Shown here: positions 32,977 through 36,822 of the stretch, piece by piece
Numbering within the stretch: position 1 is the stretch's first letter
Layout of the letters: every line of letters starts with the position of its first letter
IMG/VR virus record: IMGVR_UViG_2850784384_000004
Length of the DNA stretch: 37,979 nt
DNA from: a virus
Lineage: Duplodnaviria > Heunggongvirae > Uroviricota > Caudoviricetes
Reading direction: 5' to 3' (one strand)
The notes under the pieces: generated by a model
Database searches by the model: none
What the model saw: the letters and a program-made list of their open reading frames with translations, nothing else
Told to the model about the DNA's origin: nothing
Made by a program: the position numbers and the translations under genes

Positions 32977-33814
32977 GGTCTGTTACCCCCTGAAGCCTAG
33001 CGGGATCGCACTGTCCGGCAACGAGACGGTGTTAACCTGTCGGAGCAACGTCTCAGGCCGAACACCTTTCGGCGCGAACAGACCCTGGTATTCATTGGCG
33101 ATGCTGTGTCGAATCACCTGCTCAGGTGTAAAACCCTGCTGACGGAATTTTTCCAGTTCCCGTATCGCCCCGTTAGCGCCCAGCTCCGTTCGAATCGGTT
33201 TTCGCAATGCCTGCCTGAACTGGACCCACTCATGCCAGAGTGTTTCTGGCAACCAGTCGGGCAGATCAACTGACAACGGGTCAAATTTTTTCTGGCGAAC
33301 AGCCCCACCGATAACCAGAATTCCCTGCTCGGTGTGCCTTGCGATATCACTGCGCCGCAAGACACATATCCCGGTTTCAACAGCACCGATTTTGAGCAGT
33401 GATTTCTGTCGCGGAGAATTTCGGTCAAGCTCGATCCCACACCGGACACCGTTCCTGTCAGTCACGACGATATCAATCCGCCCTCCGCAACCGTCACCAC
33501 GCTCTGGCACCGGATACTCACGACAGACATCCAGGCCAGCAGCCTGCAACGCAACCACCGCAGAATTACAAAATTCCGCTGCAGTACCGCCAGATAATCT
33601 CCCCTCAAGCACTCCAGCCACAAAATCCCGAAACTCCCTTCCGGAAGGGAAGGGTTTGGGATGGGTTAGATCTGTTTTTAGATCTTTATCTGTATCTTTA
33701 TTAGTTGCCTTTGTGTTGGCATCTAGACTGGCCCCCTGAATCTCCAGACAACCAGTATCACTTATTTAAGTGATAGTCTTAATACTAGTTTTTAGACTAG
33801 TCATTGGAGAACAG

Positions 33815-34180
33815 ATGATTGATGTCTTAGGGCCGGAGAAACGCAGACGGCGTACCACACAGGAAAAGATCGCAATTGTTCAGCAGAGCTTTGAACCGGG
33901 GATGACGGTCTCCCTCGTTGCCCGGCAACATGGTGTAGCAGCCAGCCAGTTATTTCTCTGGCGTAAGCAATACCAGGAAGGAAGTCTTACTGCTGTGGCC
34001 GCCGGAGAACAGGTTGTTCCTGCCTCTGAACTTGCTGCCGCCATGAAGCAGATTAAAGAACTCCAGCGCCTGCTCGGCAAGAAAACGATGAAAAATGAAC
34101 TCCTCAAAGAAGCCGTTGAATATGGACGGGCAAAAAAGTGGATAGCGCACGCGCCCTTATTGCCCGGGGATGGGGAGTAA
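33815..34180 (+). CDS. insC: IS2 OrfA (InsC)
   Basis: Identical to copy A. Confidence 0.9.
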
Positions 34181-35048
34181 GCTTAGTCAGCCGTTGTCTC
34201 CGGGTGTCGCGTGCGCAGTTGCACGTCATTCTCAGACGAACCGATGACTGGATGGATGGCCGCCGCAGTCGTCACACTGATGATACGGATGTGCTTCTCC
34301 GTATACACCATGTTATCGGAGAGCTGCCCACGTATGGTTATCGTCGGGTATGGGCGCTGCTTCGCAGACAGGCAGAACTTGATGGTATGCCTGCGATCAA
34401 TGCCAAACGTGTTTACCGGCTCATGCGCCAGAATGCGCTGTTGCTTGAGCGAAAACCTGCTGTACCGCCATCGAAACGGGCACATACAGGCAGAGTGGCC
34501 GTGAAAGAAAGCAATCAGCGATGGTGCTCTGACGGGTTCGAGTTCTGCTGTGATAACGGAGAGAGACTGCGTGTCACGTTCGCGCTGGACTGCTGTGATC
34601 GTGAGGCACTGCACTGGGCGGTGACTACCGGCGGCTTCAACAGTGAAACAGTACAGGACGTCATGCTGGGAGCAGTGGAACGCCGCTTCGGCAACGATCT
34701 TCCGTCGTCTCCAGTGGAGTGGCTGACGGATAATGGTTCATGCTACCGGGCTAATGAAACACGCCAGTTCGCCCGGATGTTGGGACTTGAACCGAAGAAC
34801 ACGGCGGTGCGGAGTCCGGAGAGTAACGGAATAGCAGAGAGCTTCGTGAAAACGATAAAGCGTGACTACATCAGTATCATGCCCAAACCAGACGGGTTAA
34901 CGGCAGCAAAGAACCTTGCAGAGGCGTTCGAGCATTATAACGAATGGCATCCGCATAGTGCGCTGGGTTATCGCTCTGAAGTGGCACACTGAATTTGGCC
35001 ACCTGAACAGAGGTGATATGCTCACCTCAGAACAACACAGGTGCTCCA

Positions 35049-35351
35049 ATGAAAAAAAGAAATTTTAGCGCAGAGTTTAAACGCGAATCCGCTCAACTGG
35101 TTGTTGACCAGAAATACACGGTGGCAGATGCCGCCAAAGCTATGGATGTTGGCCTTTCCACAATGACAAGATGGGTCAAACAACTGCGTGATGAGCGTCA
35201 GGGCAAAACACCAAAAGCCTCCCCCATTACCCCGGAACAAATTGAAATCCGTGAGCTCAGGAAAAAGCTACAACGCATTGAAATGGAGAATGAAATATTA
35301 AAAAAGGCTACCGCGCTCTTGATGTCAGACTCCCTGAACAGTTCTCGATAA
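35049..35351 (+). CDS. IS911 OrfA
   Basis: Identical to copy A. Confidence 0.9.
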
Positions 35352-35377
35352 TCGGGAAACTCAGAGCGCATTATCCT

Positions 35378-36217
35378 GTGGTCACACTCTGCCATGTGTT
35401 CGGGGTTCATCGCAGCAGCTACAGATACTGGAAAAACCGTCCTGAAAAACCAGACGGCAGACGGGCTGTATTACGCAGTCAGGTACTTGAGCTACATGGC
35501 ATCAGCCACGGTTCGGCCGGAGCAAGAAGCATCGCCACAATGGCAACCCGGAGAGGCTACCAGATGGGACGCTGGCTTGCTGGCAGGCTCATGAAAGAGC
35601 TGGGGCTGGTCAGCTGTCAGCAGCCGACTCACCGGTATAAACGTGGTGGTCATGAACATGTTGCTATCCCTAACTACCTTGAAAGGCAGTTCGCCGTGAC
35701 CGAGCCAAATCAGGTGTGGTGCGGTGATGTGACCTATATCTGGACGGGTAAGCGCTGGGCGTACCTCGCCGTTGTTCTCGACCTGTTCGCAAGAAAACCA
35801 GTGGGCTGGGCCATGTCGTTCTCGCCGGACAGCAGGCTCACCATGAAAGCGCTGGAAATGGCATGGGAAACCCGTGGTAAGCCCGGCGGGGTGATGTTCC
35901 ACAGCGATCAGGGCAGTCATTATACGAGCAGGCAGTTCCGGCAGTTATTGTGGCGATACCAGATCAGACAGAGTATGAGCCGGCGCGGAAACTGCTGGGA
36001 TAACAGCCCAATGGAACGCTTCTTCAGGAGTCTGAAGAACGAATGGATGCCGGTGGTGGGTTACGTAAGCTTCAGCGAGGCAGCTCACGCCATAACGGAC
36101 TATATCGTTGGATATTACAGTGCACTAAGACCGCACGAATATAACGGTGGGTTACCCCCAAACGAATCGGAAAATCGATACTGGAAAAACTCTAACTCGG
36201 TGGCCAGTTTTTGTTGA
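35378..36217 (+). CDS. IS911 OrfB transposase
   Basis: Identical to copy A. Confidence 0.9.
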
Positions 36218-36822
36218 CCACTTCACTCGCCACGGGAATATCTGCGGCAGCGGGCTTGTAATGGGTTAAGTGATAACAGATGTCTGGAAATATAGGGGCA
36301 AATCCAGCATCATGTTCGAACACCACTCCAACATCTGTTTGAACACCTGTTAAATTTCTCTCTTGTTTTGTTTGAACATCTGCTTCCTTTCTGCTTCTTC
36401 TGGCCTGAACAGATGCTTTTCCTGCGGCTGATTTTTTGGTTAATTTTTCTCTGACAGATGCCAGATCTTCCTCAATCCGAAGATGCATCCATTCGTCGCC
36501 GTTATCACAAAAAAACTCCCGCAAGGATGGTTCAACATCAACCCATCGCTCGTTAGTCAGACGGGCAATTTTTGCCAACCTGTTTTTGGGTATTGGCTTT
36601 CCTGTTTGCCAGTAATTGAACATCAGCAACAAATACGCGCCGTGCTCCTCTGCTGACAAATGCATGGTGTCAGCCAGGTAATCAGCTATGTACAGTTGCA
36701 TGTATGGTAATGCGGCCATAATTGCCCCGTATGATGCTACCCGGTTGCTTAGAATAAGTGAGGTAGCCTGAGTTTAACGGACACTCCTTCCTGAAATAGA
36801 ATGGCATCAGAAGGAGCTAATA

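Follow-up and report, generated by a model that had tools for sequence, protein, structure and literature searches.

We analysed a 37,979-nucleotide stretch of DNA, the virus record IMGVR_UViG_2850784384_000004 (Caudoviricetes; hereafter the window), in which one insertion sequence (IS), IS911, lies inside another, IS2, which itself interrupts a replication gene of the YdaU family. We conclude, with a probability of about 0.93, that this nest arose by two successive insertions, IS2 and then IS911, in a Rac-like cryptic prophage of Shigella flexneri. The order follows from IS2-only intermediates at the identical site, as all three states of the locus are represented in natural genomes: the site is empty in E. 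coli, IS2 alone is found throughout S. flexneri, and IS911 lies within it in a single lineage. A sequence-only reading of the window had called the order unambiguous on the strength of two intact target duplications. The proposed order stands, but the duplications by themselves are insufficient to establish it, because a composite of the two elements could move as a unit or recombination could import IS911.

In this history, IS2 first entered a 382-amino-acid YdaU-family replication-initiator gene after codon 138, in the orientation opposite to that of the gene and with duplication of GCATC, an insertion that must be old because it is common to many S. flexneri genomes. In one lineage, IS911 then entered IS2 after nucleotide 1253, with both elements pointing the same way and with duplication of CTC. 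Both insertions would have occurred by the copy-out/paste-in transposition of IS3-family elements, which has a figure-of-eight and a DNA circle as intermediates (PMC3299598; PMC7780238).

Two nested elements and their target duplications

Reading the sequence and extracting the junctions by script place the outer element, IS2 with IS911 inside it, on the plus strand at 33724-36306 (2583 bp). It starts with TAGACTGG (at greater length, TAGACTGGCCCC...) and finishes with AAATCCA (at greater length, ...GGGGCAAATCCA), and is flanked by a perfect 5-bp duplication, GCATC, at 33719-33723 and 36307-36311, which is present as a single copy at the empty site of an E. coli locus (L001; the related loci compared with the window are labelled in this way throughout). 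The inner element, IS911, occupies 34977-36225 (1249 bp), also on the plus strand, with the termini TGAAGTGG...CCACTTCA (at greater length, TGAAGTGGCACA... and ...TTGACCACTTCA). Its flanks carry a perfect 3-bp duplication, CTC, at 34974-34976 and 36226-36228, and a single CTC stands at this position both in an intact IS2 copy within the window and in the IS2-only loci. The coordinates of both elements are thus exactly those that the sequence-only reading had given, with an IS2 in a YdaU-like gene and an IS911 in the IS2 transposase gene.

IS911 leaves IS2 in two parts. Nucleotides 1-1253 (33724-34976, plus strand) hold the left inverted repeat (IRL), orfA, the A6G frameshift motif at about 34127-34133 and an orfB cut after codon 280, whereas nucleotides 1254-1331 (36229-36306, plus strand) hold the final 21 orfB codons and the right inverted repeat (IRR). 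Removal of IS911 and one CTC in silico restores an IS2 of 1331 bp that is identical at 1331/1331 positions to the intact copy at 8022-9352 (copy A); the left part by itself is likewise 100% identical to copy A. Copy A has its own perfect 5-bp duplication, GCTGC, and serves as an internal control, such that the 5-bp duplications of IS2 read GCATC here, GCTGC at copy A and AGGAG at a plasmid copy described below. The complete identity of copy A and the interrupted copy (copy B) indicates recent transposition of IS2 or gene conversion between the copies.

The restored OrfB, of 301 amino acids, aligns over 1-301/301 with the NCBIfam model NF006918 'IS2 transposase TnpB' (726.7 bits against a cut-off of 597), with neither a stop codon nor a misalignment, and Pfam domains are found in both proteins (HTH_Tnp_1 in OrfA; rve, rve_3 and HTH_21 in OrfB). 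The reconstruction of IS2 anticipated from the sequence therefore succeeds in full. IS2 is an IS3-family element with inverted repeats of 41/42 bp, a donor-inactive IRL and catalytic centres spaced 5 bp apart (PMC3299598). With the IS2 of E. coli and Shigella (IS3 family, IS2 group), the present copy shares its restored length, imperfect terminal inverted repeats, orfA and orfB linked by a -1 frameshift at A6G, a DDE/rve transposase that is full length on the IS2 TnpB model, and the 5-bp target duplication; it differs in being broken by IS911 after nucleotide 1253, with a transposase that lacks its last 21 amino acids.

The inner IS911 has intact orfA and orfB, is identical at 1249/1249 positions to a second IS911 in the window (copy A, 13203-14451) and matches E. 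coli copies labelled IS911 by the Prokaryotic Genome Annotation Pipeline (PGAP) at 99.1% identity over 1249/1249 bp. Pfam finds HTH_Tnp_1 in its 100-amino-acid OrfA and rve, rve_3 and rve_2 in OrfB, the IS3-family transposase model NF033516 matches with 302 bits, and the frameshift motif TTAAAAAAGG lies at about 35299-35308 (A6G). IS911 was first isolated from Shigella dysenteriae, and its reference element is 1250 bp long. The present copy agrees with IS911 (IS3 family) in near-identity over the full length, in its TG...CA termini, in the arrangement of orfA and orfB around the A6G site and in the 3-bp duplication; nothing of note sets it apart, and its 1249 bp are also the length of the annotated E. 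coli copies. Being identical to another copy and having intact open reading frames (ORFs), it is probably still functional.

IS911 lies 78 bp from the right end of IS2 and leaves the 41-bp IRR intact, yet the last 21 amino acids of OrfB and OrfAB are replaced by EVAH, within the conserved C-terminal '...LGYRSPxEY' motif, and the IRR is now 1252 bp farther from the remainder of the element. We infer that the interrupted IS2, although it keeps both ends, would no longer transpose on its own transposase. As for the choice of target, the IS911 insertion site in IS2 matches the IS911 ends at 7/20 positions against a background mean of 7.6, and this lack of resemblance gives no sign of targeting by IS911 directed at inverted repeats. 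A hint from a repeat finder that the two IS911 copies of the window share a flank (family D5) amounts to 5/7 bases, a chance match. The joint probability that the 5-bp and 3-bp flanks match by chance is ~1.5e-5; the reconstructions are stronger evidence than this figure.

Empty, IS2-only and nested states of the site

Both 40-mers spanning the ydaU/IS2 junctions, together with the 40-mer of the uninterrupted IS2 site, occur in L003-L006, L009-L012 and L014, and in part in L008 and L013. In the IS2-only loci, at least nine in number, IS2 is exactly 1331 bp long, lies between two GCATC copies and has 0-5 substitutions relative to the IS2 of the window, with three identical, and the flanks are 99.5-99.97% identical to the window. 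Relative to L003, the sole structural difference is IS911 with its CTC, at 99.97% identity over 10.3 kb of flank. A 196-amino-acid read-through product specific to the IS2-only state, together with a close 196-amino-acid variant, is found on ~93 contigs named S. flexneri, and the protein names in the clusters identify the lineage as this species.

Only one locus, L007 (CP034060.1), showed the nested state; over 15,747 bp its sequence matches the window at 100% identity. Searches with the two 40-mers across the IS2|IS911 junctions, AGTGCGCTGGGTTATCGCTCTGAAGTGGCACACTGAATTT and AGTTTTTGTTGACCACTTCACTCGCCACGGGAATATCTGC, did not find this junction in 5,426 E. coli genomes, the GTDB species representatives, metagenome contigs or the PLSDB plasmids. 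Two seemingly full matches in E. coli and two in plasmids were each made of two pieces spread over ~470-965 bp, and the E. coli pair involve ISEc52; all four were discarded as different from the present junction. In the protein collection, the products expected from the nested state (a 175-amino-acid YdaU/IS2/IS911 read-through, a 284-amino-acid truncated InsD and a 407-amino-acid frameshift fusion) had no exact match, which is weak evidence because NCBI probably annotates such products as pseudogenes.

Several points weigh against the history of two successive insertions. The nested state is represented by a single public assembly, probably the source of the window itself, which leaves the IS911 layer without independent sequence confirmation. 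The junction scan of CP034060.1 covered the present locus, so that a second IS2::IS911 copy in the remainder of that genome would lie outside it. A 3-bp target duplication is the size expected of IS911, an expectation that comes from general knowledge of the family, and the other IS911 of the window offers no control for it, since copy A has no target duplication (flanks ctg/aac). Finally, the position of the change within the protein domain is the sole basis for regarding the truncated IS2 transposase as inactive.

Among the alternatives, the one that survives best, at what we consider a very low probability, is that IS911 reached this IS2 through homologous recombination or gene conversion, with another IS2::IS911 copy of the same genome as the donor, in which case the CTC duplication would date an event at a different locus. 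The IS copies within the window are mutually 100% identical, an observation with which recent transposition is also compatible, and Shigella genomes hold many IS2 copies (PMC7373316). However, no donor came to light, the junction being absent from all the collections searched (with the limit on CP034060.1 just given), and the S. flexneri virulence plasmids hold only the reverse nest, with IS2 inside IS911. Less probable again is that the nested arrangement is an assembly artefact, through repeat collapse or mis-joined IS copies. IS-dense Shigella genomes are hard to assemble, as the visibly indel-ridden L008 illustrates, and the lone supporting assembly is not independent of the window, to which it is identical; a mis-join would not, however, yield a perfect 3-bp duplication at the exact IS911 termini within a base-perfect IS2.

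The weakest alternative, that IS911 entered IS2 elsewhere and the 2583-bp composite then transposed into ydaU with IS2 transposase supplied in trans, logically fits two intact duplications, and both IS2 ends are intact with an intact IS2 copy in the same window, but it is effectively refuted by the IS2-only intermediates, where an unbroken IS2 occupies exactly this site between the same GCATC copies and within nearly identical flanks, so that the alternative would demand an implausible second, independent strike of the composite at the same base pair, and no composite junction was found elsewhere in the E. coli genomes, species representatives, metagenome contigs or plasmids, which brings its probability close to nil.

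With IS2 followed by IS911 as the order of events, the locus provides a fully resolved three-state series (empty, IS2, IS2 with IS911) that could mark lineages within S. flexneri, and shows in practice how nested insertions yield relative dates. It also illustrates the erosion of Shigella cryptic prophages by IS expansion, a process for which good documentation already exists (PMC7373316). The elements, the sizes of their duplications and the dating of one IS by another are textbook matter, and we regard the locus as an ordinary example, with no departure from known behaviour; it has little importance beyond bookkeeping and raises no new question.

The interrupted YdaU-family gene and its prophage

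The gene that received IS2 lies on the minus strand and is now split into a 138-codon part with the DUF1376 domain and a 244-codon part. Junction extraction and Pfam place the 5' part (codons 1-138, with DUF1376 at amino acids 5-87) at 36307-36719, and the 3' part (codons 139-382 and the stop, including the left GCATC copy) at 32983-33723, where a 212-amino-acid fragment is called in related loci. GCATC covers the codons for D137 and A138, with IS2 inserted after the latter, and the frame of the 5' part now runs through the right end of IS2 into IS911 as a 175-amino-acid ORF (36192-36719).

Removal of 33724-36306 together with one GCATC yields a single ORF of 382 amino acids (1149 nt), in agreement with the gene of about 380 amino acids that the sequence-only reading had expected to recover. 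Its product matches PF07120 (DUF1376/YdaU) at amino acids 5-87 with 87.7 bits, against a gathering cut-off of 30.1, and its orthologues are labelled 'YdaU family protein' by PGAP. At the DNA level, the restored gene is found in a single piece over 1149/1149 nt, at 99.7% identity, in two complete E. coli genomes, the only 2/5,426 E. coli genomes with the full 382-amino-acid allele. Against E. coli FDAARGOS_944, the restored region is collinear and gapless, also at the point from which IS2 was removed; 3/382 residues of the protein differ. The protein aligns end to end without gaps, at 98-99% identity, with 382-amino-acid homologues of E. coli and Salmonella.

A predicted function of the YdaU product in replication initiation finds support at the level of annotation. 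The restored protein matches the PHROG annotations 'primosomal protein' and 'replication initiation O-like', the O-like matches falling in its C-terminal ~90 amino acids, and this same portion bears a weak likeness to the C-terminal domain of DnaT (E = 0.014). The prophage is defective, and an IS600-associated deletion, described below, would have removed the operon upstream of the gene, earlier or later; the gene was therefore probably dispensable.

The present allele contains an extra module of ~128 amino acids (amino acids ~153-280; 33292-33675, minus strand) that the common ydaU genes (~807 bp) do not have, and the same module with its C-terminus is fused to a different N-terminal domain in 376-amino-acid E. 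coli proteins. The module has no Pfam match even at E = 10 and no sequence match in the PDB, and a single-sequence AlphaFold model is unusable over it, with a predicted local distance difference test score (pLDDT) of about 30-36. A stretch reading RIDIVV...IELD is vaguely nuclease-like, and its likeness to a PD-(D/E)xK motif is an impression only. Uninterrupted orthologues of 382 and 399 amino acids (L001 6001-7200 and L002 6001-7200) are split by PGAP into two 'partial' YdaU pseudogene pieces despite a continuous frame, probably because the extra middle module misled the annotation. A further variant concerns nucleotides 42-43 of IS2 (33765-33766), within a palindrome near the IRL: L004 has AA, which opens a 273-amino-acid ORF from inside the left end of IS2, in frame into the 3' part of ydaU, whereas the window has TT, which creates a stop and leaves only the 212-amino-acid ydaU fragment open.

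Directly downstream of ydaU, in the context of a replication module, lies a gene for a DnaC-like helicase loader (32233-32976, minus strand), followed by a DUF977/Ren-like gene (31796-32218); the order in E. coli L001 is ydaT-ydaU-ATPase-DUF977. The DnaC-like protein, whose gene is present on many NCBI contigs, has a one-amino-acid deletion relative to its E. coli orthologue (EKILRSGIQ versus EKILNRSGIQ), and the exact 247-amino-acid form is widespread in S. flexneri-type assemblies (438 index blocks). The chromosomal neighbours in related loci, namely tyrR-, tpx-, ycjG-, mpaA- and ycjY-like genes and a truncated LysR gene, place the module in a Rac-like prophage remnant, given the gene order of K-12. 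As in the ydaU-ydaV-ydaW module of the E. coli Rac prophage, the gene with the N-terminal DUF1376 domain precedes genes for a DnaC-like ATPase and a DUF977 protein, and the ends of the ydaU gene are ~95-96% identical in DNA sequence to many E. coli ydaU genes and to phage Rac-SA53. The present module differs in its 382-amino-acid allele with the extra module, in the split by IS2 and IS911 and in its severance from ydaS/ydaT by IS600.

This IS600 (36759-37979, plus strand, cut by the end of the window) begins 39 bp upstream of the ydaU start, and 36758 is precisely the last position with homology to E. coli. The junction separates ydaU from its upstream operon. In L007, IS600 (4955-6199) has the flanks AAG/GGA with no target duplication and a truncated LysR-type gene on its far side, which suggests that an IS600-associated deletion took the ydaS/ydaT/repressor side of the prophage. 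The IS600 junction is present in every IS2-bearing locus examined, a pattern compatible with either order of the IS600 and IS2 events.

A reverse nest on plasmids and further features of the window

The two elements are also found nested the other way round. At L015 1197-3781, on the S. flexneri plasmid NZ_LR213456.1, an intact 1331-bp IS2 sits in IS911 after nucleotide ~1055, with the perfect 5-bp duplication AGGAG noted above. Matches to the right IS2|IS911 junction in 37 plasmid records, in two pieces, represent this reverse nest (IS2 inside IS911) and not the present junction; the eight that were listed are all from S. flexneri, and the one dissected is NZ_LR213456.1. The virulence-plasmid nest has in common with the window the same two elements and a perfect duplication whose length fits the inner one, but differs in the order of nesting, in the replicon and in the site, so that it represents an independent event and not the source of the present junction.

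Five IS (IS1, IS2, IS4, IS600 and IS911) have expanded in every Shigella, where a chromosome holds 229-348 copies (PMC7373316), and at such numbers insertions of one IS into another are expected by chance. It is unlikely, if a little less so than the alternatives above, that the composite, which retains both IS2 ends in a genome with intact IS2 copies, could move as a compound element with a working IS911 when mobilised in trans, or that the two opposite nests together reflect a preference of IS3-family elements for landing in one another beyond chance.

IS make up ~31% of the window (four IS600, two IS2, two IS911 with a fragment, and two IS1). The fragment is an isolated 61-bp left end of IS911 at 6043-6103 (minus strand); together with the missing duplication of IS911 copy A, it may be read as a sign that IS have rearranged or deleted DNA at other places in the window. 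Amid the prophage remnants and IS lie an IpaH-type effector gene (LRR_TTSS and NEL E3-ligase domains) and an operon for a sitABCD-like metal ATP-binding cassette transporter, at 2942-4657 and 18345-21794. A 712-bp direct repeat of 98.3% identity occurs at 4867-5578, where it overlaps an ORF with transposase helix-turn-helix domains, and at 22025-22736, where it overlaps a tail-fibre gene (DUF4376).

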